Below are positions 5,491 through 41,328 of a DNA stretch of 64,000 nucleotides, in pieces; position 1 is the first letter of the stretch; every line of letters begins with the position of its first letter. A program made the translations under genes and the position numbers. Origin of the DNA: Minisyncoccia bacterium. GTDB taxonomy: Bacteria > Patescibacteriota > Minisyncoccia > SW-4-49-11. Under the pieces are notes generated by a model. It did no database searches and had not been told where the DNA came from. It saw nothing but the letters and a program-made list of their open reading frames with translations. The stretch covers positions 94,327 through 158,326 of the forward strand of contig JBIKWJ010000002.1 in the NCBI GenBank assembly GCA_044356325.1. The letters run 5' to 3'.

Positions 5491-5799
5491 TCAGAGGTAG
5501 GAAAAATCAAGCCTTGAAACCGCGCGATAACCATCCTTACAGGAAGTGCCTTCAGGCAAGCTAAAGCGAATTCCCCAGAATCCTTGATTGTAGCCTGAGC
5601 GAGCTACCACAACCACCTCAATATCATTGTCCGTAAGGCACGGGAAGTCACGTTTGGCCTCAACAGCTAACTCATTCAAAAACGCGATACTGTGTTGATA
5701 GGTGTTGGCAGATAGAATAAATCCATTGGGGGATGTAAACTCATCGCGAGTTGGGTTGGTTGAGCTGTATGCGGTTACAATACGTTTGTCGTAACTCAT
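5491..5799 (-). CDS. Cassette ORF, hypothetical protein (102 aa), GC-rich relative to flanks
   Basis: Bounded by the conserved promoter at 5830-5857 and the terminator at 5436-5470. Composition is visibly richer in G and C than neighbouring genes. Confidence 0.5.
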   Translation of the reverse strand: MSYDKRIVTAYSSTNPTRDEFTSPNGFILSANTYQHSIAFLNELAVEAKRDFPCLTDNDIEVVVVARSGYNQGFWGIRFSLPEGTSCKDGYRAVSRLDFSYL

Positions 5800-5829
5800 T
5801 TTCCGTGTTGGCGTTGGACGGAAACAAAT

Positions 5830-5857
5830 TTACCACATTTTCCTCTTTTTGTCAATA
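5830..5857 (-). promoter_or_regulatory. Conserved cassette promoter (minus strand reads TTGACAAAAAGAGGAAAATGTGGTAAATT)
   Basis: TTGACA, 17 nt, then an extended -10. The same about 30-bp element occurs at more than 10 sites in the window. Confidence 0.6.
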
Positions 5858-5889
5858 TTATATATCGCATTATCTATTAAACTAGACCT

Positions 5890-5985
5890 AAGATTACGCT
5901 TTATCCACCCCCGCCTTTCAGTTTTTTTCAAAGGGGGGCAAAAAACCCCCGAACAAGTCGGGGGCTGGGGTTAGGATTAGTGTAG
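5890..5985. repeat. Hairpin modules (E and F) plus the terminator for 5987-6193
   Basis: Contains ctttatccacccccgcc, caaaggggggcaaaaaaccccc and ccccgaacaagtcgggggctgggg. Confidence 0.6.
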
Positions 5986-5986
5986 G

Positions 5987-6193
5987 TTAATCTACCCATC
6001 GGTTGAGGTGTTTTTTTTCATTATCGTGGTCGTGGCCTAGAATTATTGACATTAGGGTTAAGTACTCGAGTATTCTCGATATTTCGTTAGATTTGAGGCC
6101 AGAGATTACTACAACCACTATTTTCTTCGGTATGTTCGGTATGGGAGAATCGGGGGAGATGTTGGGATTGAGATTGCGGTCAAGACTATCCAT
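5987..6193 (-). CDS. Small hypothetical protein (68 aa)
   Basis: TAGGAG lies 9 nt upstream of the ATG and a terminator hairpin lies downstream. No family recognised. Confidence 0.35.
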   Translation of the reverse strand: MDSLDRNLNPNISPDSPIPNIPKKIVVVVISGLKSNEISRILEYLTLMSIILGHDHDNEKKHLNRWVD

Positions 6194-6262
6194 TAAAAGA
6201 ACTCCTATTCTAAGGGTGGGTTAACAAATAAAACATACCATATGTTTTTATGATTGTCTATG

Positions 6263-6427
6263 GTATATCTCATCTTATTCAGAATTCCACCCTGTCAGGC
6301 AAGCCTGCCACCCCTCAAGAGGGGAATATATAAAAATGTACTGTACGAAAAATTCCCCTCTTGAGGGGTGCCCGTAGGGTGGGGTGGAATAACGGGCGAC
6401 TGAAAGGTCGCCCCTACACTACATAAT
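6263..6427. repeat. Mosaic hairpin array (families L, B, A and C)
   Basis: Contains gtatatctcatcttattcaga, ccaccctgtcaggcaagcctgccacccctcaagaggggaat, aattcccctcttgaggggtgcccgtagggtggggtgg and gggcgactgaaaggtcgcccctac. Confidence 0.8.
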
Positions 6428-6498
6428 TATATTCATATTCCCTTCGACAAAGGCATCAAAGTGTTCTATACTAAAACTAATCTTATAATCACAAATCT

Positions 6499-7086
6499 AT
6501 GAAATATTTTCACAAAACCATTATCTGGTTCACCTATATCAGTCCTATTGTATTCATCCCTTTAGCTATACTTACTCCTGCGTTAAGATCAGATTATGGG
6601 AAAAAGTTTGGGACTATAGCTTTATTATTATTCGTAATAACCCTTATCCCCAGCATTATTCAACGCTTTGGCCTGTCAAAACAATTCAGCCTTATTATTA
6701 AATTAATACTACCAGTACGCAGGCAATTCGGAATTTTGATGTTTATGGCAGCTTTTACCCATTATCTTGCAATGAAAGTAATACCGGTAATTCAATACAA
6801 ATTACCGGTATATTTACCCCTATACCAAGCATTTGGAGTATTGGCAATGATTCTCACCCTTCTGATGTTCCTCACCTCTAATAACTGGGCTACACGCAAA
6901 CTTAAAGGAGATTGGAAGCGACTACATAGAGCAACATATCTTATCGGATGGTTGATATTTGGACATGTGTTATTGGGTGGACTTAATTCAGAAGGAGAAA
7001 TATCTCTACAAGCCATTCTTATTGGTACTGTGATGGTATTAGAAGTTGCTTCTCTTATCAAGGCTAAAGTTAATGTGTTAGCGTAA
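6499..7086 (+). CDS. Ferric-reductase-like transmembrane protein (MsrQ/YedZ-like heme-binding membrane subunit)
   Basis: Polytopic membrane protein with conserved His in FTHYLAM and LIGWLIFGHVLLGG, as in the MsrQ family. Confidence 0.5.
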   Translation: MKYFHKTIIWFTYISPIVFIPLAILTPALRSDYGKKFGTIALLLFVITLIPSIIQRFGLSKQFSLIIKLILPVRRQFGILMFMAAFTHYLAMKVIPVIQYKLPVYLPLYQAFGVLAMILTLLMFLTSNNWATRKLKGDWKRLHRATYLIGWLIFGHVLLGGLNSEGEISLQAILIGTVMVLEVASLIKAKVNVLA

Positions 7087-7090
7087 AATA

Positions 7091-7720
7091 TTATCCCAAA
7101 TGGGCATGATCATTCCAGGTAATAATATTCCAGTCTTTTTGATCTTCATCAAATTGCATCCAAACTATTCCCGTATTACTCATAACTAAGTTATTAGTAA
7201 CCACTTTGGCTTCTTTTGCTGTCACATGAGACCCAAATAAACGATACCAGACCAAACAATGTAGGAAATTCTTATGGGTTACGATAATAATATTATCTTC
7301 TTCCCTAGACTCAATAAATTCAAAGGCTTTTTGAGCTCTTAATTTTAAATCTTCAAAATTTTCCTCATCAGAATGTCTATAATCTGATATTTCCCAATTA
7401 TCTGCAATTTCTTTATCTATAGCTTTTAATTCTTCCAGCTCTTTACTCTTTTCTTCTTGAATAGATGGTCTTTTTTTCTCAACAAATAATTCGTTTTCTT
7501 CAATAGGCAAATTAACAATTTTAGATATATATTTAGCAGTATCATAAGCCCTTGCATAGGGACTTGTTATAAGTAAATCCGCTGAGATATTATTAAACCG
7601 ACTAGCTATTTGCTGAGCTTGCTCATGACCTAATTCAGATAATGGGATACTAGCTGATTGATATATCCGCAATGCATTTCCCTCTGATTGTCCATGGCGC
7701 ACAAAATATATATTTTTCAT
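7091..7720 (-). CDS. Histidine phosphatase family protein (phosphoglycerate mutase-like)
   Basis: FVRHGQSEGN catalytic motif near the N-terminus. The track start (7822) runs through the tRNA trailer element and is trimmed to the ATG before MKNIYFVRHG. Confidence 0.75.
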   Translation of the reverse strand: MKNIYFVRHGQSEGNALRIYQSASIPLSELGHEQAQQIASRFNNISADLLITSPYARAYDTAKYISKIVNLPIEENELFVEKKRPSIQEEKSKELEELKAIDKEIADNWEISDYRHSDEENFEDLKLRAQKAFEFIESREEDNIIIVTHKNFLHCLVWYRLFGSHVTAKEAKVVTNNLVMSNTGIVWMQFDEDQKDWNIITWNDHAHLG

Positions 7721-7852
7721 ATGTGGATCTGACTGGGATACAAACCAGACTCTCGTCTTAGGAAACCCACGTTTTCCCAACCTTCCTAGACAGGAAACTG
7801 CCGTTTCCCGACCCCTTCCCAACTGGTTCGCTCCTATATTATTAATTTACTG
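7721..7852 (-). other. tRNA-associated trailer element: two GC hairpins plus a degenerate duplicate of the tRNA-Ala 3' end
   Basis: 7724-7757 tggatctgactgggatacaaaccagac resembles the tRNA 3' end tggacctgactgggatcgaaccagcc (about 80 percent). Between them lie ggaaacccacgttttcc and ggaaactgccgtttcccgacccc, the same element found 3' of tRNA-Arg. Confidence 0.6.
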
Positions 7853-13234: not shown

Positions 13235-13471
13235 TATATATCAATATTATATTTTTTCTTTGGTACAAGGTAATTATGGAGACTCCAAGCAGACTCGCAC
13301 TGCTGTAGAGGGTTTTGCAGACCCTTGCCTAACTTCTCGGCCATGGAGCCAATTACGGCTTTTAGTATAGCATAGATTCAGTTTTTAGGGAAATAGTAAG
13401 GAAAGAAAAAAGCCCACCGTCCGAAAACGGGGGTTGGGGGGGGCTTGGCATGGTATCCAGCGGAGGTAAGA

Positions 13472-13702
13472 CTAAAATACATTACCTCTTGTGAAGAGGT
13501 TGTATACCCAGCCCCCTCTCAAAGGGCCCCACCAATTACCATTATTTGGAAATGCCGGCAGTGTCCGTACAAAACCCCATCTATCTTGGGGGTAATAATA
13601 TCCTGCTTCACCCGTGTTACACCATGCTATATTCCCAATGTAGCCACCTTTCGCTGAAATGTAGCAAAAATCGTTTGGTAGGGTGTTTTGGGCATTAGTC
13701 AT
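13472..13702 (-). CDS. Cassette ORF, hypothetical W/G/Y-rich small protein (about 76 aa)
   Basis: Bounded by the conserved promoter at 13736-13766 and a terminator near 13405-13445. The track N-terminus MWYSF is the promoter -10 read as codons, so the ATG MTNAQ was chosen. Visibly GC-richer than flanks. Confidence 0.4.
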   Translation of the reverse strand: MTNAQNTLPNDFCYISAKGGYIGNIAWCNTGEAGYYYPQDRWGFVRTLPAFPNNGNWWGPLRGGWVYNLFTRGNVF

Positions 13703-13735
13703 AGTGACCAATCTCTTTGATAAAGGGTCGATAAA

Positions 13736-13766
13736 ACTATACCACACTCCTCTTATTTTGTCAAGA
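13736..13766 (-). promoter_or_regulatory. Conserved cassette promoter (TTGACAAAATAAGAGGAGTGTGGTATAGT on the minus strand)
   Basis: TTGACA, 17 nt, TGnTATAGT. Upstream is a conserved AT-rich about 100-bp leader shared with the 15340-15420 copy. Confidence 0.6.
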
Positions 13767-13904
13767 TGCGTTGTAATTTATTTATAATAATTATATCTAT
13801 TTTATCATTATTATAGCTTATTTGCTTATCTTTATACAATATTATATTTTGTTATAATTTTATGTTTTATTATTATACATTTTAACTTTCGTAGTGCTTT
13901 TGTC

Positions 13905-14110
13905 CTAAAATTCCCCTCGTTGAGGGGTGGACAGCTTCGCTGGACGGGGTGGAGTACTTTTATATTCGTAGGGTTTTTGTCCCTCCTATATTTATTTAGA
14001 AAAAACGACCTCTCAGTCGCCCGAAACCTAACCCCAAAACTTGACAAAAAAACACTACTATTATAAAATATATTTACATTTGGCGTTAGCCACGTCCCTC
14101 GTTTGCGAGG
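13905..14110. repeat. Mosaic hairpin array (families A, H, C and G)
   Basis: Contains aaaattcccctcgttgaggggtggacagcttcgctggacggggtggag, cgacctctcagtcgcccg and gtccctcgtttgcgagggc. Confidence 0.75.
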
Positions 14111-14426
14111 GCTCATTGATAAAGATTTATAAACCCTTCTTTTACTTTAGCAAAATCTATTTCATTCAAAGACCCCATTTTGTTATGTAGTCTCCTATAA
14201 TCAATTGTTCTGACCTGCTGTAAACAAGCTGTTATTCTCTTACCTTGATATTCATAGGCCACATACCAAGTACCTGTTTTATTTTTGGTAGTTGTAGGAA
14301 TAACCAAATATGTCCATTTATCTACCGTAGGTAGAAAGGAGGACATTAAAACGCTCCACCCCGTCAGGTAAGCCTGCCCAAAAAAAAACTCTATGCTATA
14401 ATATGGCTATATGCTAAATATTCTCT

Positions 14427-15017: not shown

Positions 15018-15075
15018 TTATAAAACTTGATACCCACTATTAAAACTGGGGTTTTTATTATATTTCAAATTAATA

Positions 15076-15102
15076 AAAACCGACTGCAAAGCAGTCGGTG
15101 AT
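15076..15102. terminator. Bidirectional terminator (accgactgcaaagcagtcggt)
   Basis: Perfect 9-bp stem with A and T runs. Sits between the convergent trmH-like gene and the cassette ORF. Confidence 0.6.
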
Positions 15103-15112
15103 GAAAAAGTAA

Positions 15113-15277
15113 TTAGAAAGAGGGGGGAGGGATAGGCATACCCCACTGAAGCATAAGTTGCTCATGACTAACAAGAGCATATCTAGCTTCTTCACTGTCG
15201 GGTGAAGTATTGTATCTTTGTCTCAAAATATTTAACCAATAAACAAAATGTTGAACAACAGGATGATTAACATCCAT
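15113..15277 (-). CDS. Cassette ORF, small hypothetical protein (about 54 aa)
   Basis: GGAGG lies 5 nt before the ATG (MDVNHPVV), with a TTGATA/TGnTATAGT promoter upstream. The track N-terminus MWYSF is a promoter artefact. Confidence 0.35.
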   Translation of the reverse strand: MDVNHPVVQHFVYWLNILRQRYNTSPDSEEARYALVSHEQLMLQWGMPIPPPSF

Positions 15278-15309
15278 AACATCCTCCAAAGAGCAAATTG
15301 TAAAAAAAC

Positions 15310-15337
15310 TATACCACAAATCTTAAATTTTATCAAA
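15310..15337 (-). promoter_or_regulatory. Conserved cassette promoter variant (TTGATA N17 TATAGT)
   Basis: Homologous to the 13736-13766 promoter and AT-rich leader block. Confidence 0.5.
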
Positions 15338-15439
15338 AATTATTAGCTTTTTTAGTTATCTTTACATAATATTATATTTTGTCATTATTTTTTGTTTTAT
15401 TATTATACATTTTAACTTTCGTAAGAGCACCTTGCTCTA

Positions 15440-15575
15440 AAGATTCCCCTCTCCACCTACGGTCGATAAATTGAGGGCTTTCGTCCCTCCCATACTTTAG
15501 TTTGGGAGGGGGTCGACAGCTTCGCTGGACGGGGTGGAGTGCTTTTGTATTCGTAGGGGCAACCTTTCAGGCTCC
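15440..15575. repeat. Mosaic hairpin array (families A-like, J, H and C)
   Basis: Contains cccctctccacctacggtcgataaattgagggc (inverted copy at 41790), cctcccatactttagtttgggaggg, gctggacggggtggag and cgtaggggcaacctttcaggctcc. Confidence 0.75.
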
Positions 15576-16587: not shown

Positions 16588-18084
16588 TTATTTTTTAATC
16601 TGTTCATAGACATAGAGTATATCTCCCTCTATTGGAGTGGTTTTCTTAAAAGAACAAGAAATTACCATTCCACATTCATTTCCGTCTGAGACATCAGATA
16701 CATCTTGTTTATCTTGTTGAAGATTAGTCAATTTACCCTGTACAATAACCTTGCCTTCGGAATTCTCTATTTCAATCAGACCATTACGTACCATACGCCC
16801 TGTGCGTACAATTCCTCCCAAAATAAGACTTTTTTTATCTTCCTTGAATACTTTCAATACTTTGAGTTCCCCGAGATCGGTTCTGGTCACTTTTGGACCT
16901 TCTAATTGAATGATTTGGTCTCGAATTTCATCGATTAATTCATATATCAGTCGATAATATTTAATAGCCACATCCTTGAGGTCTGCTAATTCTTTTATTT
17001 TCTTATCCTGTTTGATTCCAAATCCAAGTATTACAGCTTGCTGTACTTTTGCTTGAGCAATATCATTAGCGGTAATATCTCCTACTTCTCGTCCCACAAT
17101 GGTAATTTTGATATCTAATTGCACAATTTGCCCAAGAGCATATTCTATAGCATCTAGAGACCCGATAGAATCGGCTTTAATAATAAGGTTAAGAGTTTTC
17201 TCTTTTTCGAGTAGAGATTGAATAACTGGATTATTAGCTGGAGGTATTTTGGCCGCTTCAATCAAAGCCATAGCATCATTTTCTGAGGCTACTACACGAA
17301 ATTCATCTCCGGCTGAGGCCACATTTTTTAGCCCCAATATTCGAGCAGGCTCAGCGGGTAAAGCCTCTTTTATCATAGTTCCTGAATCATTGGTCATACG
17401 GCGAATTTTACCATATACCGTATTCCCGACTAATAGCACATCCCCTAATTTTAATTTTCCATTTAATACCACAATATCAGATAAAGGTCCTGCCTTAGAG
17501 TCAAGGAATGACTCCAAAACAAATCCATCAGTTGCGGATGGGTCATAATTAGCTTTAAGCTCTTCTACTTCAGCTACCAGAGCTATCATTTCGAGAAGTT
17601 CTGGGATACCCTCCCCGCTAACAGAAGATACATTTTGTACAATAGTTTGCCCTCCCCATTCCTCAGGAGTTAAGTCTAATTCTGCCAAATCAGCTTTTAT
17701 CTTATCGAGTACGAGATTTGGCTTATCAATTTTGGTAATAGCTACAATAATAGGTAATTGAGTACTTTTGGCAAGTTCAATAGCCTCAAGAGTTTGTGGT
17801 TTCACACCTTCGTCTCCTGCAATAACAATAATAATAATATCTGCCGTTCTAATCCCACGACTTCGAATAGATTTAAAGGCTTCATGACCAGGAGTATCAA
17901 TAAATGTTATAGTAGCATCTTTGTGAGATACCTGATAAGACCCAATATGTTGGGTAATACCTCCAGCTTCACCCGCAGTCACATTAGCCTTACGAATATA
18001 ATCGAGAAGACTGGTTTTCCCATGATCAATATGTCCCATAATGGTGACAATTGGAGGGCGAGGCTGAATAGTGGAATCTGACAT
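16588..18084 (-). CDS. infB: Translation initiation factor IF-2 (short form)
   Basis: G-domain IMGHIDHGKTSLLD, DTPGHEAF and TKIDK, followed by beta-barrel domains. 498 aa. Confidence 0.9.
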   Translation of the reverse strand: MSDSTIQPRPPIVTIMGHIDHGKTSLLDYIRKANVTAGEAGGITQHIGSYQVSHKDATITFIDTPGHEAFKSIRSRGIRTADIIIIVIAGDEGVKPQTLEAIELAKSTQLPIIVAITKIDKPNLVLDKIKADLAELDLTPEEWGGQTIVQNVSSVSGEGIPELLEMIALVAEVEELKANYDPSATDGFVLESFLDSKAGPLSDIVVLNGKLKLGDVLLVGNTVYGKIRRMTNDSGTMIKEALPAEPARILGLKNVASAGDEFRVVASENDAMALIEAAKIPPANNPVIQSLLEKEKTLNLIIKADSIGSLDAIEYALGQIVQLDIKITIVGREVGDITANDIAQAKVQQAVILGFGIKQDKKIKELADLKDVAIKYYRLIYELIDEIRDQIIQLEGPKVTRTDLGELKVLKVFKEDKKSLILGGIVRTGRMVRNGLIEIENSEGKVIVQGKLTNLQQDKQDVSDVSDGNECGMVISCSFKKTTPIEGDILYVYEQIKK

Positions 18085-18639: not shown

Positions 18640-18850
18640 TACTATTAATGTCCTCCTTTCTACCTACGGCAGATAAATGGAGGAGGTGGCACGGAGTGCC
18701 GGAGGTGGATTGAGCTAAAATTCCCCTCTTGAGGGGTGACAGGCTTGCCTGGCGGGGTGGAAAAACAAAATATTAATAATAACAAAACCCTTCCACCCCG
18801 TCTCCCTACTATGTAAACATAGCAGGAATCCACCCCTCAAGAGGGGAATT
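18640..18850. repeat. Mosaic hairpin array (families D/I, E, A and B)
   Basis: Contains gtcctcctttctacctacggcagataaatggaggaggtggcacggagtgccggaggtggat, aaattcccctcttgaggggtgacaggcttgcctggcggggtgg and ccacccctcaagaggggaattt. Confidence 0.8.
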
Positions 18851-18862
18851 TAATACCACCCT

Positions 18863-19663
18863 ATGACACAATCCCAAATTATATCCTTATTAAAAGAATA
18901 TCAGATAAAGCCCCTAGAGTCTTTATCCCAGAATTTTTTTATTGAAAAAGATTTGCTTATCAAAATTATTAACAAAATCAATATAGCCCCCAACTCCACT
19001 TTATTAGAAATAGGTCCAGGACTTGGCTCCCTCACCGAATTACTAGTACAGCAAAAAGTCCCCGTAATCGCGGTGGAACTGGATAAAACTTTTGCTTCTA
19101 TACTCCCTAGCATACTCGAGAATCCAGATAATCTCACCGTATATCATCAAGATATACTCAAATCCCAAGAGCTAATAGACACTATACAGACCCCTTATAC
19201 CGTAATAGCTAATATTCCTTATCATATTACGGGAGCTATAATTCGGCTACTGGTAGATAGAGATAATCCTGCCGATAGTATTAATCTCCTTATTCAAAAA
19301 GAGGTAGCCAATAATCTCTTATCTCATGAGAAATCCTTATTCCAACTTAGTGTCAATATATATGCCGATGTCAAACTTTTGTCCCATATAGCCAAGGAAT
19401 GCTTTTACCCCAAACCTAAGGTAGACTCTAGTTTTATACAACTCATACCCCATAATCGCTATGCCGAGTATAATCGAGAAGATATTATACAACTTGCCAA
19501 ATTAGCCTTTCAACAAAAGCGAAAGAAAATATCCTCTTCACTCAAACCCAAACTCACTCGACCGATAGGGGAGTATAGCTCCGAGATCCAAGCCCTCCTC
19601 TCACTCCGCCCCGAGAATCTAACTATAGATAATTGGATAGAGCTGTATCAGGGGTTGAAGTAA
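18863..19663 (+). CDS. rsmA: 16S rRNA (adenine1518/1519-N6)-dimethyltransferase RsmA/KsgA
   Basis: QNFF..D.., SAM site LEIGPGLGSLT, and NIPY catalytic motif. Confidence 0.9.
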   Translation: MTQSQIISLLKEYQIKPLESLSQNFFIEKDLLIKIINKINIAPNSTLLEIGPGLGSLTELLVQQKVPVIAVELDKTFASILPSILENPDNLTVYHQDILKSQELIDTIQTPYTVIANIPYHITGAIIRLLVDRDNPADSINLLIQKEVANNLLSHEKSLFQLSVNIYADVKLLSHIAKECFYPKPKVDSSFIQLIPHNRYAEYNREDIIQLAKLAFQQKRKKISSSLKPKLTRPIGEYSSEIQALLSLRPENLTIDNWIELYQGLK

Positions 19664-19669
19664 AAAAAG

Positions 19670-19710
19670 ACCCCGAACGCAGTTGCGAACGGGGCTTATT
19701 TTTTGGGGGA
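19670..19710. terminator. Bidirectional terminator (ccccgaacgcagttgcgaacgggg)
   Basis: Inverted repeat flanked by A and T runs. Sits between convergent rsmA and the cassette ORF. Confidence 0.55.
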
Positions 19711-19728
19711 GTCTACTGAACCTAATGG

Positions 19729-20199
19729 TCAGTCGATAGGCTCTTCTGCCATAGGGATCTCTTCGATCCCGGAAAGAGTGAGAACAAACCTCTGCCAAGG
19801 ACGTTTGTAGTTGTAAGACTCGAAGACGAATCCTGGTACTGCTACCACCAATAGTCCCCCTTCACACCTCGCTTCCGAGGTGTGCCACACCTTAGGGGTG
19901 TGGCCAGTTACCTGGCGGAAACTGGCAGCCTTTATGAGAGCAACAACCCTATCATCACCTAGTGTGGTAACCTCAACCACACATTTGTTACCTGAACTTT
20001 GGAGCTTCGCTCCAGAAGGAGCAAAGGAGCTAAGAAAAATATCCTTTCCGTACTGGTAAAGGTACTTAATACCCTCTCCTTTAATACCAAGTGTTTTCCG
20101 GGTTGCTCCGGCTGAGTATATTTGTTCGGTCAGAGGCTCTGACCGAACATAGCCGGAACCGTAGTTTTGGAATCCCATAAGTCTGTTGCTAATGAACAT
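19729..20199 (-). CDS. Cassette ORF, hypothetical protein (156 aa), GC-enriched
   Basis: ATG lies about 12-25 nt downstream of the conserved promoter at 20211-20241 with no SD. Contains GHTPKVWHTSEARCEGG. No family assigned. Composition is richer in G and C than the backbone. Confidence 0.5.
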   Translation of the reverse strand: MFISNRLMGFQNYGSGYVRSEPLTEQIYSAGATRKTLGIKGEGIKYLYQYGKDIFLSSFAPSGAKLQSSGNKCVVEVTTLGDDRVVALIKAASFRQVTGHTPKVWHTSEARCEGGLLVVAVPGFVFESYNYKRPWQRFVLTLSGIEEIPMAEEPID

Positions 20200-20210
20200 T
20201 TACAAAAACA

Positions 20211-20241
20211 ACCATATCACATTTTCCTCATTTTGTCAATG
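20211..20241 (-). promoter_or_regulatory. Conserved cassette promoter (TTGACAAAATGAGGAAAATGTGATATGGT)
   Basis: Same about 30-bp element as at 5830, 21427, 40654 and 41296. Confidence 0.6.
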
Positions 20242-20394
20242 ATTTTTGTCTAAAAGTTTTATAATATTTCTACGCAAAGTTTTTGTTTATTTTAAAATAT
20301 ATTCTTATATATAATTATGTGTTTTATATTTATGTCAAAACATAGAGTTTTCATTGTAATAATATAAAGTTAATAAAATGTAAACCCCGGAGAT

Positions 20395-20460: not shown

Positions 20461-20464
20461 GAGC

Positions 20465-26547: not shown

Positions 26548-26654
26548 GAAGTATCTTTAAGATCATATCCATGACAAGATATATTGTCTATTACTATTGA
26601 CATTTTGTAATTTTTGTGATATAGTCTTTTTTGTACCTTGCAATTGGAGCCGTT

Positions 26655-27038: not shown

Positions 27039-27060
27039 GCTAGCCTTGGCTCAATCCACA

Positions 27061-27090
27061 AAAGCCGTAGTATCACTACGGCTTTTTTCT
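27061..27090 (+). terminator. Terminator (aaagccgtagtatcactacggcttttttc)
   Basis: 10-bp stem plus a T-run. Confidence 0.6.
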
Positions 27091-30093: not shown

Positions 30094-30139
30094 ATATTCA
30101 GACTATATAGCCCTATTATACTCTTTTCTAAATAAATAA

Positions 30140-30375
30140 TCTATTATTTGTATGAGATGATAAGATCGTAGATAAGTTATGCTTTCGTAGCGGAGGGTTT
30201 ATCCCTCCACTATTGTTCTTATGTAGGGGCGACCTTTCAGTCGCCCGTAGTGTTTTTGTACCTAACTGGCGAGTCTTTAAGTCCATCCCATACATTTTTT
30301 GGGATGGGGTGTCGATGAAATCGACGGATGTGGACAGGCGACTGCAAGGTCTCCCCTACAGAAAGAAAAAACCCT
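30140..30375. repeat. Mosaic hairpin array with an inverted pair of family-C hairpins flanking nested palindromes
   Basis: tgtatgagatgataagatcgtagataag (L), cgtagcggagggtttatccctccac (K), tgtaggggcgacctttcagtcgcccgtag at 30223-30250 and its inverted partner gacaggcgactgcaaggtctcccctaca at 30333-30360. These enclose tcccatacattttttgggatgggg and gtcgatgaaatcgac. Confidence 0.8.
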
Positions 30376-30378
30376 CGC

Positions 30379-30840
30379 TCAGCGAGGGGTGTGGGGTTGA
30401 TGAATTCTCCTTCGGAGAAAGTTCACCATAAAAATGAGTATATCAATTGAATATAAGCACAACAGTGCCAATAACATAGGAGGTAAAAAAGCCTCAATTA
30501 AGGGTATAGTTATAGACTTTTTAGTCATTATAAAAATTATATTCGCTGCATCAATAAACAGTGCAAGCCAAATAAATGCAACGAGTCCCGTCAGGGCAAC
30601 TTTTACCCAAGAATTCTTCATTGAAAGAAGCATTCCAAACATTATAATATATAATGCTGTAATTGTGATAAAATCTAAATTAAAGTACTCTTGATATAAC
30701 TGTACTGCTACTGATGTATTTAGATTTAGTACCTTTATGGTTGAGTTATAAAGTGCTGAACCCGCCAATATAGGTAATATTACGATATTCTTCACAGTTA
30801 TGAAAAATACTTGAAGAAGATTAGCTTTTGAAAGAGCCAT
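30379..30840 (-). CDS. Hypothetical polytopic membrane protein (153 aa)
   Basis: Four or five predicted TM helices. Stop is followed by ccctcgctcagcgaggg then TTTTTT. Confidence 0.5.
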   Translation of the reverse strand: MALSKANLLQVFFITVKNIVILPILAGSALYNSTIKVLNLNTSVAVQLYQEYFNLDFITITALYIIMFGMLLSMKNSWVKVALTGLVAFIWLALFIDAANIIFIMTKKSITIPLIEAFLPPMLLALLCLYSIDILIFMVNFLRRRIHQPHTPR

Positions 30841-30899
30841 GATAGCCTCCGAGGGCTGGTGAGACTTTCAAAAAATAGCATATTTATATATTTTTGTAA

Positions 30900-31190
30900 A
30901 GGGTTGATAAGTTTTTAGTAGGGGCGACCTATGTTTTAAAAATTCCCCTCTTGAGGGGTGGCTTCCTGCTATGTTTAAATAGCGGGGAGACGGGGTGGAG
31001 TGTCTTTATCTTATTTATTTTTATTTTCTTTCCACCCCGGCCAGCAGAACTGTCCACCCCTCAAGAGGGGAATTTAAGCTCAGTACAAACCTACCTCTAC
31101 ACAGTCCACCCTCCTAAATAAATATAGGAGGAACTTAAAGCTCACCCACTCGTCTACCGTAGGTAGAAGGGAGGGCAGTAAATATGCCGA
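30900..31190. repeat. Mosaic hairpin array (families C, A, H and I)
   Basis: Contains agtaggggcgacct, aaaaattcccctcttgaggggtgg, ggggagacggggtggagtg, ccaccccggccagc, ccacccctcaagaggggaattt and cgtctaccgtaggtagaagggagg. Confidence 0.8.
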
Positions 31191-31269
31191 TATCTTTTAA
31201 ACTACTAAAGAAAACCCTTACTAGCTTAGGTCAGTAAAAAGAAAAAGAGCTCGCACATAGTACGAGCTC

Positions 31270-31800
31270 TCAACAGCTTTTATGAAAAAGGATTATAGCA
31301 CCCGCAACAGCGAGTACCAACCCAACCCAATAGGGTCTGCCCAACAAAAACATTATCCCTATTACTACAAAGATTGTCCCTAATACAACCTTGGTGAAGA
31401 AATAGCCCAGAATTATTAATATAATTACTCCTATCAATACCAGAAATGGTGGGTGTTTTATTAGCATAAATATAAAAACGGCTATGACCAAAAGAGATAC
31501 GCATATAATCCACAATACCCCTACCCAGAGCATAATTAGTCCGGAGGTTTCCGGAAATATATCTATTAATTTCATTATTCCCGCAAGTACCAGGAGTGCT
31601 AAAATTATAGCAAAGAGATCTGATCCATACCACCTACCCCTACCATCTTTTTTTACAATAACCTCGCTTTTCCTTGCATCTCCGTCTTGCTTTAATCGAG
31701 CTAAGCGAAAGTCACATTCTTGACTTAGCATGGATAGAGCTAGGCGAGAGTCACATTTTTCTTGGTTACCAATTAATGGTTCTGATTGAGATTGATGCAC
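31270..31800 (-). CDS. Hypothetical membrane protein (176 aa) with an internally repeated N-terminus
   Basis: GTG start 9 nt after AGGAGG. Conserved promoter at 31858-31889. About 26-bp near-direct repeat in the coding 5' end (gctaagcgaaagtcacattcttgact / gctaggcgagagtcacatttttcttgg). Four TM helices. Confidence 0.5.
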   Translation of the reverse strand: MHQSQSEPLIGNQEKCDSRLALSMLSQECDFRLARLKQDGDARKSEVIVKKDGRGRWYGSDLFAIILALLVLAGIMKLIDIFPETSGLIMLWVGVLWIICVSLLVIAVFIFMLIKHPPFLVLIGVIILIILGYFFTKVVLGTIFVVIGIMFLLGRPYWVGLVLAVAGAIILFHKSC

Positions 31801-31857
31801 TGGATGGAACCTCCTTTTGTAAAAGTTCTAATGAGCGGAATAGCTCATCACACGAAG

Positions 31858-31889
31858 ACTATAGCATATTTTATCAATTTTGTCAATAG
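31858..31889 (-). promoter_or_regulatory. Conserved cassette promoter (TTGACAAAATTGATAAAATATGCTATAGT)
   Basis: TTGACA, 17 nt, TGnTATAGT. Confidence 0.6.
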
Positions 31890-31937
31890 TAATTATCTTA
31901 TTTTTATAGCTTATTATATATCATTTGATTTTTCCAA

Positions 31938-32135
31938 TACTTCCGAGGTCTATCTGTTTCTGCTAGAATAGCAATCACATCGATAATAGAAAAATACCAT
32001 TTTTCTTGATCAACATACCAAATACTACGAACCTGTTTTTTTCAAATAGTTTGATTGCTATATCTTTTTTCATAGAATTAGCTTAGATATATTTATTATA
32101 TCTCTTTTGTCGAGAATTGTGCTATATGCACTCAA
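31938..32135 (-). pseudogene. Truncated duplicate of the dinD-like gene's promoter and first about 50 codons
   Basis: About 200 bp nearly identical to 32818-33020. Own translation gives MKKDIAIKLFEKKQVRSIWYVDQEKWYFSIIDVIAILAETDRPRKYW then stop. Confidence 0.6.
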
Positions 32136-32142
32136 TATAATT

Positions 32143-32964
32143 TTAGTTCTTATCAATGAGCTTTTTTGCTGATATGGAACTAACAACCTTTTTTCCCGTT
32201 TTCTCCTCTATTTCCCTTCGAGTATTGCCCGCAATAGTACCACCTTGATTTGCTATGACTTTATTCTGGTCAAAGTTCTTAGGCTTTTTCTCTTTACTAA
32301 TTTCGGTAGTTGTTGCTTCTGCAAGCATATTAAGAACTAGCTCTAAGTTAGTCATATTATCTCGTAAATTCTCTTTTTTTAGATTTTTGTATTGTTTATA
32401 TGCTTTGACCGATAAACCGCTCCAAGCTCTTGTAATTTCATCCGTTAATATAGCATATTCTTGTCCCTTTTTTACTCCTCTTATATCCCACTCATCAGTA
32501 AGTTCTTTTCTTACCTCTATACTTTTAAGTCTTTGATTTACCCATTCTTTAGAATATCCCTTTTTGAGATATATCTCCATCAATCTATCTATTCCAAGCT
32601 CTGGATCTTCAATTTCATCGAGACGCTCCCGCGCAACCTGTGCTATCCATATTTTAAAAGGTTCAGCTTTAGGAGAAGGGATAGATTGAATAAGTCTAAA
32701 TAATTGCTCCGTATCAGCAACATCAGTAAGTCTTAATTTTCCATCCGAAGCTTTTATTTTCAACTGTCCGATATTTTCGGACAGTTCACTTCCTTCATTA
32801 CCAAGTTTTGTTTTGAGATCATTCCAATACTTCCGAGGTCTATCTGTTTCTGCTAGGATAGCAATCACATCAATAATAGAAAAATACCATTTTTCTTGAT
32901 CAACATCCCAAATACTACGAACCTGTTTTTTCTCAAATAATTTGATTGCTATATCTTTTTTCAT
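32143..32964 (-). CDS. dinD: DinD-like protein with N-terminal Bro-N domain (DNA-damage-inducible protein D / phage antirepressor family)
   Basis: N-terminal LFEKKQVRSIWDVDQEKWYFSIIDVIAILAETDRPRKYWNDL matches the Bro-N pattern. Length and organisation match E. coli DinD (274 aa). Confidence 0.6.
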   Translation of the reverse strand: MKKDIAIKLFEKKQVRSIWDVDQEKWYFSIIDVIAILAETDRPRKYWNDLKTKLGNEGSELSENIGQLKIKASDGKLRLTDVADTEQLFRLIQSIPSPKAEPFKIWIAQVARERLDEIEDPELGIDRLMEIYLKKGYSKEWVNQRLKSIEVRKELTDEWDIRGVKKGQEYAILTDEITRAWSGLSVKAYKQYKNLKKENLRDNMTNLELVLNMLAEATTTEISKEKKPKNFDQNKVIANQGGTIAGNTRREIEEKTGKKVVSSISAKKLIDKN

Positions 32965-33094
32965 AGAATTAGCTTAGATGTATTTATTATACTCTTTTGT
33001 CCAGAATTGTGCTATATGGATAGTATATTTTTGTAAAGGTCTTATTATTGATAATTCTCATCTTATTGAAATCTATATTATGTGTTGTTATGTA

Positions 33095-33123
33095 TTGACA
33101 AAATAACATATTTATGGTATAGT
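33095..33123 (+). promoter_or_regulatory. Conserved cassette promoter, plus orientation (TTGACAAAATAACATATTTATGGTATAGT)
   Basis: TTGACA, 17 nt, TGnTATAGT. Confidence 0.6.
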
Positions 33124-33146
33124 TATATTATATTTGATCCTTATTT

Positions 33147-33473
33147 ATGCCTAAAAAAGCCTCTCCTCTCACCATTCAGGGTGAGGAGATTCAAGTTGGT
33201 TGGAAGTTTCAAGCGGGGTCTCCACTGAAGAATTATAAGGTTATTGGGATAACCTTTAGTTCAGTATGCTTCGAGACTCTCGATGGGAGAGTGGAGCCAG
33301 CCATGCCACATGCTCAGTTCAGAGCTTGGTTAGAGCCTCCCACTCCAAAAGACCCCACAGAGTCCAGGCGGCCTAATTGTCCTGTAAGGAGACTCCATCC
33401 ATCCACCAAGAACGACATCCCTACTTATGGGGGATCCCCAGGTCAAATATTCAAACGCCCCCAAAGTCCCTAG
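33147..33473 (+). CDS. Cassette ORF, hypothetical protein (108 aa), GC-rich
   Basis: Between the conserved promoter and the conserved terminator. No SD. Start uncertain. Confidence 0.4.
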   Translation: MPKKASPLTIQGEEIQVGWKFQAGSPLKNYKVIGITFSSVCFETLDGRVEPAMPHAQFRAWLEPPTPKDPTESRRPNCPVRRLHPSTKNDIPTYGGSPGQIFKRPQSP

Positions 33474-33510
33474 CCCCACGGCAACACGCGGGGCTTTTTT
33501 GTTTACCTTA
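33474..33510 (+). terminator. Cassette terminator (ccccacggcaacacgcggggcttttttgttt)
   Basis: Shares cgcggggcttttttgttt with the terminator at 33850-33900. Confidence 0.6.
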
Positions 33511-33537
33511 AGCACAGTTTTTGTGTGTTGATAATTA

Positions 33538-33566
33538 TTGACAAAGTCAAGAAAATATGTTATAGT
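33538..33566 (+). promoter_or_regulatory. Conserved cassette promoter (TTGACAAAGTCAAGAAAATATGTTATAGT)
   Basis: TTGACA, 17 nt, TGnTATAGT. Confidence 0.6.
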
Positions 33567-33591
33567 GTTCCTGTTTTGATTCTTTAGTCAA

Positions 33592-33849
33592 ATGTCAACC
33601 CTTCACGGCTTCTTTCATCAGTCCGATGCAAATCTTTTTGGGTATTGTGAGTACACAACACCCACTCCTGGGAAAAATGTATTCGTAACTGAGGTATTAC
33701 CGGGAGAGGGAGATGCAATTCCTTCAACACAACGTAATCCTCTTTCTGATTATGTGGGTATTGTACTCACAATGGTGAGGAGAATAGACCCCGAAAATTT
33801 TTGTGAGGAAGAAGAGCTTGAAGAAGGCCGCGGAGAAGAAGACGGCTAA
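33592..33849 (+). CDS. Cassette ORF, hypothetical protein (85 aa) with an acidic C-terminus
   Basis: Between the conserved promoter and the conserved terminator. Ends EEEELEEGRGEEDG. Confidence 0.4.
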   Translation: MSTLHGFFHQSDANLFGYCEYTTPTPGKNVFVTEVLPGEGDAIPSTQRNPLSDYVGIVLTMVRRIDPENFCEEEELEEGRGEEDG

Positions 33850-33900
33850 TCCCAGCCCTCACAACATACCCAGCCCTGCGCATCGCGGGGCTTTTTTGTT
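33850..33900 (+). terminator. Cassette terminator (cagccctgcgcatcgcggggcttttttgttt)
   Basis: Second copy of the conserved terminator tail. Confidence 0.6.
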
Positions 33901-33962
33901 TGATAAAAAAAACTCCTACTTTCATGTAGGAGGGTTGGGTTTAGATAAGGATGAATAAGTTT

Positions 33963-34274
33963 TTAGATGGGTTCTTTAATGAGTTGCTCGATTGTTTTGA
34001 GACTCTCATCTATTTTTTTAAGTTCCGTCACTATCCTTGATATTACTATAGTATCTTGTAGATTTATTAATACATCTTCTTCTTCTGTTCTACCACGTAT
34101 GCACTGAATGGTGTCGCTAATAAAAGTAATGATACGGATACGGTGTTTATGTCTAGTATCTTGGGAAAGATATTCCTCGATTTCTCTAAGCATACTAGGT
34201 ATAGTCTCTTCTTTTATTCCCCTCGCATCTTGAAGCGGGGGCAGGGTCGGACTTTGAATTGCTGAAAGAGACAT
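33963..34274 (-). CDS. Small hypothetical protein (103 aa)
   Basis: AGGAG lies 6 nt before the ATG. Terminator ctcctacatgaaagtaggag followed by TTTTTTTT is downstream. Confidence 0.45.
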   Translation of the reverse strand: MSLSAIQSPTLPPLQDARGIKEETIPSMLREIEEYLSQDTRHKHRIRIITFISDTIQCIRGRTEEEDVLINLQDTIVISRIVTELKKIDESLKTIEQLIKEPI

Positions 34275-34387
34275 CAGGTTCTCCTGAAGTTTGGATGAAC
34301 TTAATTACCCTATCATACATTAGTAATATAGTCAATATTTATGATATTTTTTATAGTCTAGTATACGAGGAATTTATACCTATTTTT

Positions 34388-35176
34388 TTACCCCCAACAA
34401 TATAATAACCTTAAATGTATAGGCATTAGGAGAAGATTCCAAAACCAACCATACCATTTGGCGATATATTTTCTCTGGGCGGTATAATATCGCTCTTTGG
34501 TTTTACGAATATTGCTCTCTGAGCCTCCTTCTTGATGCCAGACGGTGATTTGTTGAGTCCACTCTATATCTCTCCCTATTTGTTTAGCTCGATAGCATAA
34601 ATCTATATCTTCATAATACATAAAATATCTCTCATCAAAGCCTCCAAGTTTACGGAATAAGGCGGTCTCGATACAGAGTGAGCCTCCACTTACCCAATCG
34701 GTGGATATAGTCTGTTCTGTAGGCATTTGCCAAGTCTTTTTAGCTGTATTCCTGATTATACTCTGAGGTGTGGGGAAAACTCCATACTGATACTCTTGTA
34801 TTCTCGTATTATTATCCACCAGAGCCAGTCCCATTATCCCTGTATTTTCACCAATTGTGGATAATGTGTGGATATCTCCTTGTATCTTGGTGTCGGGGTT
34901 AATAATACATAGCCAGTAACCTGTCGCAATAGTCACTCCTATATTCACTCCAGCGCCAAATCCAGCATTTTTATCTGAATACACAATATGTATTCTTTCT
35001 GTGGATAAGTCTTTGAGACTATCGAGATTCTCTCCCGAATTATTCTCGACTACTATTATCTCATATTCTCCTGTGGTGGATGAGATAATAGCTTTTATAC
35101 AGTCTTCTAGATAATGCTTAGTCTTATATGAGACTATAATAAAGGATATGGTTTTATTCTTGAATATTGATGGCAT
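34388..35176 (-). CDS. Family 2 glycosyltransferase
   Basis: ISFIIVSYKT..IIVVENNS..DKNAGFGAGVN..D, the GT-A fold DXD-type pattern of GT2. Confidence 0.75.
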   Translation of the reverse strand: MPSIFKNKTISFIIVSYKTKHYLEDCIKAIISSTTGEYEIIVVENNSGENLDSLKDLSTERIHIVYSDKNAGFGAGVNIGVTIATGYWLCIINPDTKIQGDIHTLSTIGENTGIMGLALVDNNTRIQEYQYGVFPTPQSIIRNTAKKTWQMPTEQTISTDWVSGGSLCIETALFRKLGGFDERYFMYYEDIDLCYRAKQIGRDIEWTQQITVWHQEGGSESNIRKTKERYYTAQRKYIAKWYGWFWNLLLMPIHLRLLYCWG

Positions 35177-37352: not shown

Positions 37353-37360
37353 ACTGATTT

Positions 37361-40285: not shown

Positions 40286-40346
40286 AAATTAGTAGTGTTA
40301 TACTTGGATAAAACTACTAATTGACTTAATATAGTAAACAAAAAAA

Positions 40347-40371
40347 CACTCCAACCACGATGGAAGGAGTG
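40347..40371 (-). terminator. Cassette terminator (cactccaaccacgatggaaggagtg followed by a T-run on the minus strand)
   Basis: Duplicate at 41109-41133. Confidence 0.6.
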
Positions 40372-40412
40372 CGGGGGAGAGTTTAAAATATGGATTTAAA
40401 TGAATGAATTGT

Positions 40413-40628
40413 TTATACCTCAACAATTTTTGCATTTATTACTCTCATTATAGACTCGCCTCGTTGTTTTACCAAAACAGATGACCCTGTGCTTAAATCT
40501 ATCCTGGTCCTGTTGTTCGAATCGGCGACATATGATGCTGAAACAGCCACTATCAGATCTGGTCGAATGTAGACAGGCCCGTCATGGCTGGTCAGTGAAA
40601 GAAATTCAGTTTCGGTTGATTCGTCCAT
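40413..40628 (-). CDS. Cassette ORF, hypothetical protein (71 aa), GC-enriched
   Basis: Track start is the TTG of the -35 hexamer; trimmed to the ATG (MDESTETEF). Bounded by conserved promoter and terminator. Confidence 0.4.
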   Translation of the reverse strand: MDESTETEFLSLTSHDGPVYIRPDLIVAVSASYVADSNNRTRIDLSTGSSVLVKQRGESIMRVINAKIVEV

Positions 40629-40653
40629 GGAAAAATCGGCGATGTTTACAAAA

Positions 40654-40688
40654 CTATATATACCACATTTTCCTAATTTTGTCAATAG
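40654..40688 (-). promoter_or_regulatory. Conserved cassette promoter (TTGACAAAATTAGGAAAATGTGGTATATA)
   Basis: Start of an about 420-bp block (promoter, AT leader, hairpin array) repeated at 41296. Confidence 0.6.
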
Positions 40689-40799
40689 TTGTTGTTATTT
40701 ATTTTTAACATTTACTATTGTCTATAGCATTATTAATTAATTTATTATTATATTTTGTTATGATTTTATATTTTTTATAGTTATGACATTATGTTTTTG

Positions 40800-41075
40800 T
40801 CCCCCTTTGCCTGCCTGCGGTAGGCAGGGAGGGGGAAGCATGAAAGGCGGGGGTGGATAAAAGTAAGTCCATATTCTAAATTTAATATTATTAGAAAATA
40901 TAAATAACTTTTATCTCTATCCACCTCCGGCACTTCGTGCCACCTCCTCCTAAGGAGGACAGAAGCTCAAATTACATACACACCCGCCGACTCTAAGAAT
41001 TTACCAATAATACTATAGTAAAATCCACCCACCCCGTCAGGCAACCCTGCCGATAGTACTTTCATATATAGAGAT
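40800..41075. repeat. Hairpin array, copy 1 of tandem block
   Basis: gtccccctttgcctgcctgcggtaggcagggagggggaagc, ggcgggggtggataaa..70 bp AT..ctctatccacctccggcacttcgtgccacctcctcctaaggaggac, ccaccccgtcaggcaaccctgcc. A near-identical array lies at 41440-41640. Confidence 0.8.
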
Positions 41076-41108
41076 ATTATATAGTTAATTGATATAGTAA
41101 ACTAAAAG

Positions 41109-41133
41109 CACTCCAACCAAGATGGAAGGAGTG
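41109..41133 (-). terminator. Cassette terminator, copy 2
   Basis: cactccaaccaagatggaaggagtg. Duplicate of 40347-40371. Confidence 0.6.
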
Positions 41134-41153
41134 CGGGGGAGTGTTTGTGAAAC

Positions 41154-41273
41154 TCAATTCACGACTTTGTCTGCCTTGTCTTGCCTGAAAAACAAGATAT
41201 GAATCAGAGCAAGGGGGGTTGCAATGATCATAGCAACTGTGACCATAACTCTGGTCGAAGAAGGAAGTTTCAT
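41154..41273 (-). CDS. Hok-like mini-ORF (39 aa: MKLPSSTRVMVTVAMIIATPLALIHILFFRQDKADKVVN), candidate type I toxin-like membrane peptide
   Basis: Own translation. The ATG lies 17 nt after the conserved -10 and the stop precedes the terminator. The alternative track frame reads through the terminator and was rejected. Resembles the Hok N-terminus MKLP..S followed by a TM segment. Confidence 0.3.
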   Translation of the reverse strand: MKLPSSTRVMVTVAMIIATPLALIHILFFRQDKADKVVN

Positions 41274-41295
41274 GACAGTAAAATGAACATACATT

Positions 41296-41328
41296 ATATA
41301 TACCACATTTATCCGTTTTTGTCAATAG
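41296..41328 (-). promoter_or_regulatory. Conserved cassette promoter, copy 2 of tandem block
   Basis: TTGACAAAAACGGATAAATGTGGTATATA. Confidence 0.6.

Follow-up and report, generated by a model that had tools for sequence, protein, structure and literature searches.

The 64,000-nucleotide stretch of a Minisyncoccia bacterium genome analyzed here (the window) raises the question of why nearly identical promoters stand, at a dozen sites, in front of short genes that bear no resemblance to one another. The answer that we consider probable is that these are autonomous expression units for accessory genes, built on reusable promoter and terminator frames and gained, lost, replaced, and horizontally moved, in a chromosome of the Paceibacteria, a lineage of the candidate phyla radiation (CPR). 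The same chromosomal slots hold different genes, or none, in related strains, and the units therefore look like exchangeable expression cassettes of the accessory genome; the most fitting description is that of moron-like, autonomously transcribed units whose regulatory frames are portable. The CPR, or Patescibacteria, makes up a large share of bacterial diversity, and to our knowledge its gene regulation and accessory genomes are almost undescribed; nor do we know of genetic tools for Paceibacteria. A full-text literature search turned up no account of such cassettes from the CPR, which is not proof of their absence.

A promoter frame reused before unrelated genes

A preliminary description of this DNA listed ten promoters and a relative at 22372, and all of these are present where it placed them. 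The extended promoter, tATTGACAAAAT..(A)GGAAAATGTGgTATAGT, occurs at 12 sites against 0.08 expected by chance, as judged with the family pattern TTGAYM-N13-RTGN-TAWRDW and 200 dinucleotide shuffles, the best of which gave 2 matches. The pattern added a site at 26597 on the forward strand, overlooked before; a weaker 13th site lies at 6260-6232 on the reverse strand. The family promoters are of the sigma-70 type, with a perfect -35 box, a 17-bp A-rich spacer, and a TRTG-extended -10 box, and an ATG-initiated open reading frame (ORF) of 39-308 codons starts within 2-35 nt past each promoter, or 126 nt in one case. Judged by their sequence, the promoters probably fire, and would do so strongly and largely constitutively. 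A CRP-like half-site (AAATGTGA) in the spacer was considered and rejected upon inspection; the second half-site is absent.

The similarity is not confined to the promoter. The AT-rich block described upstream was recovered, as TATAACAAAATATAATA has 13 matches at no more than 3 mismatches against 2.6 expected, and the blocks have a GC content of only 0.21-0.26. Between cassettes, segments of 40-374 bp in the promoter region have 84-95% identity, as exemplified by 40655-41023 and 41295-41668 (95%), 13799-13918 and 15327-15451 (84%), and 21416-21465 and 40646-40695 (84%). This homology ends near the transcription start and picks up again with the hairpin of the terminator. What lies between, hereafter the cargo and designated by its length in residues (c308, c156, and so on), is different each time: BLASTP bore out the claim that the cargos are mutually unrelated, and 32 cargos from the window and its relatives fall into 23 unrelated families, with similarity confined to cargos that occupy the same slot in different genomes. 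The GC content of most cargos is 0.39-0.63 (0.30 for c77) against 0.36 for the genome. Stem plus T-run terminators close the cassettes as had been reported, but each conserved type is restricted to one adjacent pair (5.45/5.95 kb, 33.49/33.89 kb, and 40.35/41.11 kb), and the type containing ccagcccccga, said to recur several times, occurs twice. The cassettes are spread over at least 7 loci and both strands.

Many promoter modules are preceded by arrays of hairpins, mosaics composed of some nine kinds of short GC-rich palindrome, clustered at variable spots and absent from 46-64 kb of the window. The array at 21640-21930 has perfect 21-nt terminal inverted repeats (TIRs; AAATTCCCCTCTTGAGGGGTG) and sister copies at 18718-18851 and 30940-31075, with a related one at 6283-6388; perfect TIRs of 21-22 nt occur in at least 3 copies, whose GC-rich hairpin content varies, and related copies occupy other positions in the relatives. 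As short, multicopy elements with TIRs they resemble miniature inverted-repeat transposable elements (MITEs), and one such region folds with a z score of -7.4. In one relative (L022) an array is inverted relative to the promoter and, as the arrays also cluster at variable spots, they are to be regarded as separate modules; the array of one cassette, cassette B, travelled together with it (see below).

Slot polymorphism and horizontal movement of a cassette

The window is the origin region of a Parcubacteria/Paceibacteria chromosome, from a freshwater bacterium with a tiny genome. Its large ORFs encode BipA, a LOG-family protein, PcrA/UvrD, a short IF2, a VirB4/TraG-like ATPase, two Wzy_C proteins, a flippase, and DnaA, to which gene calls on the 159.6-kb source contig, JGI 3300037508 Ga0335038_0000009, added rnpA, yidC, dnaN, dnaE, uvrB, ksgA, and rbfA. 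Repeated strong promoters, small ORFs, and scattered tRNAs had suggested a phage early region; this was ruled out because megablast of the window DNA against 50,697 phage records returned no match and the large ORFs, among them those for BipA, IF2, PcrA, DnaA, DnaN, DnaE, and UvrB, belong to the cellular core. A DnaA scan of a genome collection identified 12 related loci (DnaA identity 67-99%) in Parcubacteria/Paceibacteria metagenome-assembled genomes from lakes and rivers, and the comparison took in 15 related genomes in all. Between 38843 and 43262 the gene order is dnaA (at 38843), an oriC-type cluster of DnaA boxes (TGTGNATAA repeats, 41830-42152) lying between the cassettes and dnaN, and dnaN itself, and the cassettes therefore flank the replication origin. 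The cumulative GC skew has its minimum at about 32-42 kb. In the window strain, the dnaA stop codon and the DnaA boxes are separated by 1.5 kb of cassettes; in relatives without cassettes, the boxes lie directly 3' of dnaA.

Comparison of strains at fixed chromosomal sites, as the preliminary description had proposed, showed that the cargo differs between related genomes and supported its view of modular units with conserved flanks and variable cargo. Depending on the genome, the dnaA-oriC, ksgA-traC, rbfA-spoU, and spoU-pcrA slots are occupied by unrelated cargos that follow the same promoter module, or are empty. The spacer between dnaA and dnaN measures 325-529 bp in 8 of the 12 relatives, including the three closest (95-99% DnaA identity), and in these eight, DnaA boxes are present and neither a family promoter nor a cassette was detected; it is 1867 bp in the window, which has two cassettes there, and 1662, 1066, and 1014 bp in L022, L025, and L028, which carry cassettes as well. 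Four different cargos follow the same promoter in this slot, three of them before the same terminator. The window carries a 39-residue peptide with a transmembrane (TM) segment and a 71-residue acidic protein, both with the same terminator; L028 and L157 carry the 71-residue protein and L025 an unrelated 2-TM peptide (about 67-75 residues by choice of ATG), again with that terminator. L022 has an ortholog of the 39-residue peptide and an unrelated 50-residue TM peptide, the latter with a different terminator, and in L019, L020, and L030 the slot is empty. A duplicated dnaA 3' fragment (codons 400-472; L022 5309-5527), located between the two L022 cassettes downstream of the intact dnaA and fused directly to an AT block, is a scar of past recombination at this slot.

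The other slots tell a similar story. In the group of L158, L160, and L161, in which IF2 is 99% identical and core synteny is identical, different cargos lie under family promoters in the ksgA-traC, rbfA-spoU, and spoU-pcrA intervals. L158 and L160 lack c308, and there the same promoter module drives 123/80- and 71/253-residue cargos, the latter pair in L160; c156 is also missing from its slot in both genomes. The c76 cargo is identical in L160 and replaced by an unrelated 98-residue acidic cargo in L158. The c77 promoter is kept in L158 and L160 with a cargo diverged past detection by BLASTP, while their c54 orthologs diverge fast. In L019 and L020, the promoter and leader of c108 are conserved and the ORF is only 42-50% identical. 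Orthologs of c127 occur in L028, L160, and L019, L028 has a 47% homolog of c176, and c85 is present in L157 and absent or diverged in L019, L020, and L030. The c102 slot of L164 has two tandem copies of hairpin array plus promoter (976-1004 and 1550-1578), the first driving a different short sequence and the second the c102 homolog, i.e. a duplicated frame with different cargo.

Evidence for movement comes from cassette B of the dnaA-oriC slot (40300-41023, reverse strand). This unit comprises a hairpin array (41023-40791), an AT block plus promoter (40790-40657), the ORF for the acidic protein c71 (40628-40413), and a terminator (40377-40340). Identity to L157 and L028 is 99% in the promoter and AT block, 97-99% in the hairpin array, 93-97% in the cargo, and 92-94% in the terminator, whereas dnaA and dnaN of the same genomes are only 81% and 77% identical. 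Identity changes abruptly, and exactly where the cassette begins: the last 200 bp of dnaA are at 78-80% and the cassette is at 90-100% from its first base. The whole cassette therefore moved horizontally, and not by recombination in core flanks; import through the dnaA or dnaN flanks was ruled out by the identity profile. A metagenome scan with the AT-block pattern retrieved one locus, L157.

Routes of exchange and competing explanations

How might such units be exchanged? Each consists of a predicted strong sigma-70-type promoter after an AT-rich block, often with a GC-rich hairpin/MITE array, followed by a cargo ORF with almost no leader and a terminator. The promoter/AT-block and terminator modules are related by common descent and reused around many unrelated cargos, and the units are confined to a few of the intergenic spaces between core genes, being gained, lost, and replaced between close genomes and moved horizontally between more distant ones. 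Wherever a slot already holds a frame, DNA that is taken up could recombine with the frame modules by homology, so that any cassette of the population pool could take the place of the resident. Recombination in these modules (hairpin array, AT block plus promoter, terminator) would be the most likely route of cargo swap. DNA uptake is plausible because natural competence and the recombination of linear cassettes have been demonstrated in Saccharibacteria, another CPR lineage, by researchers who deliberately avoided native promoter and terminator sequences as a precaution against off-target integration (PMC10633639). It is tempting, if doubtful on present evidence, to go further and view the cassettes as a recombinase-free functional analogue of the integron in CPR bacteria, the standardized frames both ensuring expression and acting as portable homology arms. 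A lineage-wide pool of small, fast-evolving genes would then be available to a genome with few regulators, any slot of which could have its resident replaced by a transformed cassette.

In Neisseria, minimal mobile elements are strain-specific gene cassettes that lie between conserved flanking genes and are exchanged by transformation. The Paceibacteria units are similar in that different cassettes or none are found between the same conserved genes, no mobility gene is present, and the organism is plausibly competent. They differ in that the imported tract ends at the cassette edge rather than within a flanking core gene; the homology arms would here be the cassette frames, not the core genes.

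If the cassette proposal is correct, strain variation in an episymbiont-type genome of about 1 Mb would be focused on a few slots occupied by small self-expressing cassettes, and one such slot lies immediately between dnaA and oriC. At least 23 small protein families, several of them very acidic and some of them membrane peptides, would be strongly expressed, strain-variable, and horizontally exchanged, and these families would be candidates for functions in interaction with phages, hosts, or competitors. The frames would supply natural, portable strong promoter and terminator parts for Paceibacteria, and gene-cassette exchange without a dedicated recombinase could be put to the test in this system.

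Several observations weigh against this proposal. The promoters and terminators are sequence predictions, and the scope of the comparison was about 64 kb of the window genome and pieces of about 20 kb of its relatives. Some cassettes (c102, c54, and c127) are stable, vertically inherited residents, and the sharp step in identity at the edge of cassette B speaks against import of cassettes through core-gene flanks. Substitutions in the small cargos are nearly flat over codon positions, with nonsynonymous changes equal to or exceeding synonymous ones, and core genes are under strong purifying selection (e.g. 45 synonymous to 3 nonsynonymous changes). From the flat pattern it follows that the small cargos are fast-evolving or weakly constrained; some may be unconstrained or decaying, even as their ORFs stay intact in orthologs. 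The c71 copy of L028 (11569-11781) has an in-frame TAA at codon 32 and a -35 box mutated to TTGACG, and appears to be a decaying cassette unless the assembly is in error. To these points must be added the recurrence of the promoter core in viral contigs, discussed below.

Among the alternatives, the one that fares best, unlikely as we judge it, holds that the mobile unit is a non-coding mosaic resembling MITEs or repetitive extragenic palindromes (REPs), with an outward promoter and a terminator, which inserts beside resident genes; the cargos would not be cassette parts at all. The MITE-like elements in the arrays, with their perfect TIRs in several copies, fit this reading, as do the variation in module order and orientation, including the inverted array of L022, and the fact that what separates two tandem cargos (terminator, hairpins, and promoter) can count as a single intergenic element. 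Private variants are also common to the promoter copies of a single genome (GGAAAGTGTG for the two L160 copies, TATATT for the two L158 copies), a pattern suggestive of duplication or gene conversion. The reading further agrees with the concept of putative mobile promoters, defined as upstream regions that are at least 80% identical over 50-100 nt while the genes they precede, in the same genome, are not homologous (Matus-Garcia, Nijveen, van Passel 2012, PMC3488235). The three upstream pairs given above (95, 84, and 84%), with their unrelated cargos, fall within that definition; the present units differ in having a matching terminator and variable cargo, in being strain-polymorphic and transferred, and in belonging to a CPR lineage. 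In the same way, the arrays are like REPs, bacterial interspersed mosaic elements, and MITEs in being mosaics of short GC-rich palindromes with at least 3 copies bearing perfect TIRs, but here they constitute just one module of the frame. A non-coding mosaic would not account for the cargos that are missing along with their frames in the closest relatives, nor for the cassette B cargo that moved with its frame, and no transposase, REP-associated tyrosine transposase, or IS200-like gene was seen in the sequences available (the window and the related loci).

It is less probable still that the promoters reflect nothing more than the general sigma-70 consensus, such that unrelated strong promoters converged on TTGACA-N17-TGnTATAAT in an AT-rich genome and the supposed cassettes are ordinary small genes. 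TRTG motifs at -16 and A-rich spacers are common in low-GC bacteria. Moreover, the bare 27-mer core occurs in at least 120 unrelated AT-rich viral contigs that have nothing else in common with the window, and a viral-contig scan with this core returned unrelated AT-rich contigs only. Part of the similarity is therefore convergence on an optimal sigma-70 promoter, the 27-mer apparently being close to a solution that AT-rich genomes reach repeatedly, and family membership rests instead upon the AT block, the hairpin modules, and the terminators, all of which are clearly homologous. The preliminary description had itself allowed that housekeeping genes might carry the same 30-mer. The predicted core promoters lack it: those at rpmH-rnpA (37893), the divergent IF2-operon and ksgA promoters (18579 and 18631), and those of several genes right of the origin, including those at 46717 and 51382, have no AAAAT after the -35 box, no TRTG at -16, and no TATAGT as -10 box, from which it follows that the family is not simply the consensus of the organism. 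Spacer identity is 58% among family sites against 33% among other good sigma-70-like sites of the window, and a TG-extended -10 box combined with TATAGT is almost exclusive to the family there. Convergence also would not extend homology 40-370 bp upstream into the AT blocks and hairpin arrays, nor leave modules 97-99% identical where core genes differ by about 20%. Within the window, these comparisons largely refute a mere consensus.

A derivation from remnants of prophages or integrative elements, in which the units would be like early genes with phage promoters, is very improbable. The architecture does recall morons and the early regions of phages, there are a Bro-N protein, a truncated PemK toxin, and a TraC/VirB4-like cluster in the vicinity, and a scan of viral contigs for the c308 family found one 42% relative near an Erf-like gene on an IMG/VR contig of uncertain viral status (L165). 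Yet the phage records yielded no DNA match and PHROGs no match for any cargo, the viral contigs have the promoter core only in common with the window, the cassettes are interleaved with dnaA, the genes for IF2, PcrA, and BipA, ksgA, and tRNAs, and the TraC/VirB4 cluster is syntenic core in all relatives. Morons are recognized by their own promoter, their own terminator, insertion between otherwise adjacent genes, and deviant base composition (PMC5567305), and the units described here are alike in having a predicted sigma-70-type promoter, a factor-independent terminator, insertion between adjacent genes, and deviant GC. They differ in residing in a cellular chromosome, among core genes next to oriC, rather than in a phage, and in that their promoters and terminators form a reused homologous family, with several units per slot and swapped cargo.

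Finally, site-specific recombination of the integron or shufflon kind, in which the hairpins would be attC-like or sfx-like sites, is hardly credible: conserved flanks around variable cargo and GC-rich imperfect hairpins between cassettes had suggested the resemblance, but no tyrosine or serine recombinase, integrase, or invertase was found among the called genes of the window or the related loci (a 103-residue ORF gives a faint, sub-threshold Phage_int_SAM_6 match, E = 0.035), the 3' ends carry several unrelated types of ordinary stem plus T-run terminator rather than attC-like sites, each cassette has its own promoter, the loci are dispersed, and cargo orientation is constant between strains, the only inversion being that of the non-coding array in L022. 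Like integron cassettes, the units are small and mostly single-gene, have unrelated functions and structured DNA at their boundaries, and form a variable pool at fixed sites; unlike them, they lack IntI, attI, and attC, are not promoterless, and do not form one array.

The cassettes, their cargos, and neighboring features

Leftmost in the window, on the reverse strand, is c102, whose promoter (TTGACAaaaagaggaaaatgtggTAAATT, 5827-5855) is kept in the relatives L162 and L164; the cargo and terminator span 5436-5799 (ORF 5799-5491, GC 0.46; terminator 5470-5436). The cargo occupies the same locus in these two relatives at an identity close to that of its neighbors. Only 10 homologs exist, well conserved and with many invariant residues, and an AlphaFold2 (AF2) model had low confidence (predicted local distance difference test, pLDDT, 68) and no fold match. 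Next to it lies the weaker 13th cassette (5940-6260, reverse), with a promoter at 6260-6232 (TAGACA..ATATGGTATGTT), an ORF of 68 codons (6193-5987), and a terminator (5969-5940) of the same type as that of c102. Two further reverse-strand cassettes follow: c76 (13406-13764; promoter 13764-13736, W/G/Y-rich ORF 13702-13472, terminator 13433-13406) and c54 (15075-15336; promoter 15336-15308, ORF 15277-15113 with a Shine-Dalgarno sequence, terminator 15099-15075). The AT-rich blocks upstream of the two promoters (13799-13918 and 15327-15451) are the 84% identical pair mentioned above, and the former, also on the reverse strand, contains TATAACAAAATATAATA.

The next three are likewise on the reverse strand. 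The c156 cassette (19662-20239; promoter 20239-20211, ORF 20199-19729, GC 0.48, terminator 19697-19662) is leaderless-like, as its start lies 11 nt after the -10 box; the cargo has 15 representative homologs, its domain is also repeated in giant proteins, and a viral-contig scan for it found nothing. The c308 cassette (20382-21455; promoter 21455-21427, ORF 21391-20465, GC 0.63, terminator 20414-20382) encodes a member of a large, highly conserved Patescibacteria family without a Pfam domain, with at least 668 homologs and 60-85% identity among the best 120 listed. The family has about 60% GC even in genomes of 38-46% GC, where the promoters differ. An AF2 model (pLDDT 88.5) most closely resembles DHH/DHHA1 phosphoesterases (pAp phosphatase, GdpP, RecJ), weakly (E about 3e-3); the DHH triad is not evident, the corresponding position reading DKF, and a PDB sequence search with the c308 profile gave no match. 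Coding is thus supported for c308 by homologs and the AF2 model, and for c102 and c156 by homologs. The third, c77 (22051-22400; promoter 22400-22372, ORF 22343-22110, terminator 22079-22051), represents a divergent TTGACC subtype.

On the forward strand, c127 (26597-27088; promoter 26597-26625, ORF 26655-27038, terminator 27060-27088) is the cassette absent from the earlier list, and c108 (33095-33500; promoter 33095-33123, ORF 33147-33473, GC 0.50, terminator 33474-33500) and c85 (33538-33897; promoter 33538-33566, ORF 33592-33849, isoelectric point (pI) 4.2, terminator 33872-33897) are neighbors whose terminators have the same GCGGGGCTTTTTTGTTT. On the reverse strand, c176 (31242-31886) has its promoter at 31886-31858, a long leader with a Shine-Dalgarno sequence, an ORF (31800-31270) with about 6 predicted TM segments, and a terminator at 31271-31242. 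Cassette A of the dnaA-oriC slot (41104-41668, reverse) consists of an upstream module (41668-41295) 95% identical to 41023-40655 of cassette B and containing the promoter (41325-41297), the ORF for the 39-residue TM peptide (41273-41154), and a terminator (41139-41104) 90% identical to that of cassette B.

None of the cargos has a match in Pfam, PHROGs, PADLOC, or NCBIfam, and the earlier label of defense, addiction, or host-interaction islands gained no support from these searches. Most are soluble, several are very acidic (pI 4.1-4.9), and those of the dnaA slot are often basic membrane peptides; as a group they would be small, fast-evolving proteins, and may have conflict or interaction functions. 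Two earlier assignments were not borne out: no ribbon-helix-helix protein was found among the cargos, and the 39-residue peptide, called Hok-like, has no Pfam Hok or other match, being a hydrophobic peptide of pI 10.3 with one predicted TM segment. The sequence just past both dnaA-slot terminators (GTTTACTATAT; 40300-40345 and 41075-41103) reads as a TG-extended -10 box (TGATATAGT) on the opposite strand, and an antisense RNA driven from there could run through the terminator and reach the 3' end of the cargo. Such an RNA would fit a type I toxin-antitoxin arrangement for the 39-residue membrane peptide, on whose antisense side there is only this -10-like motif (TATAGT), in the conserved 3' flank. 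Most cargos indeed lack a Shine-Dalgarno sequence, as had been noted, but the lack is genome-wide (3 of 33 core genes and 4 of 12 cargos have one) and is therefore not a cassette feature. The organism apparently initiates translation without such pairing, and the slightly greater frequency among cargos may hint at foreign origin. At the Rfam gathering threshold, the window contains only 5 tRNAs, and a search of the cassettes gave nothing at E ≤ 0.1.

Other features of the window deserve mention. The IF2 gene (16588-18084, reverse), located between a DUF4446 gene before it and rbfA after it, encodes just 498 residues, with the GTPase and C-terminal domains and without the long N-terminal region. 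A PemK/MazF-like toxin ORF (14113-14346, reverse) of 77 codons matches profile positions 37-106; the L158 version at the same place has 132, and the window ORF is therefore probably a truncated remnant, for which no antitoxin was identified. A Bro-N domain gene (32143-32964, reverse) is flanked by a 230-bp direct repeat (31932-32159 and 32822-33051, 91% identical), which covers the 5' end of the gene and its upstream region, so that the downstream copy is a truncated second one; in the closest relatives, about 1 kb stands in place of the whole interval 30127-34404. To the right of the origin, a strain-variable spot without a family promoter (44792-45468), about 620 bp of which is absent from L019, holds a 66-residue ORF with a weak MamF_MmsF match, a 37-residue ORF, and hairpin repeats related to those at 1582-1662 and 40797-40859.

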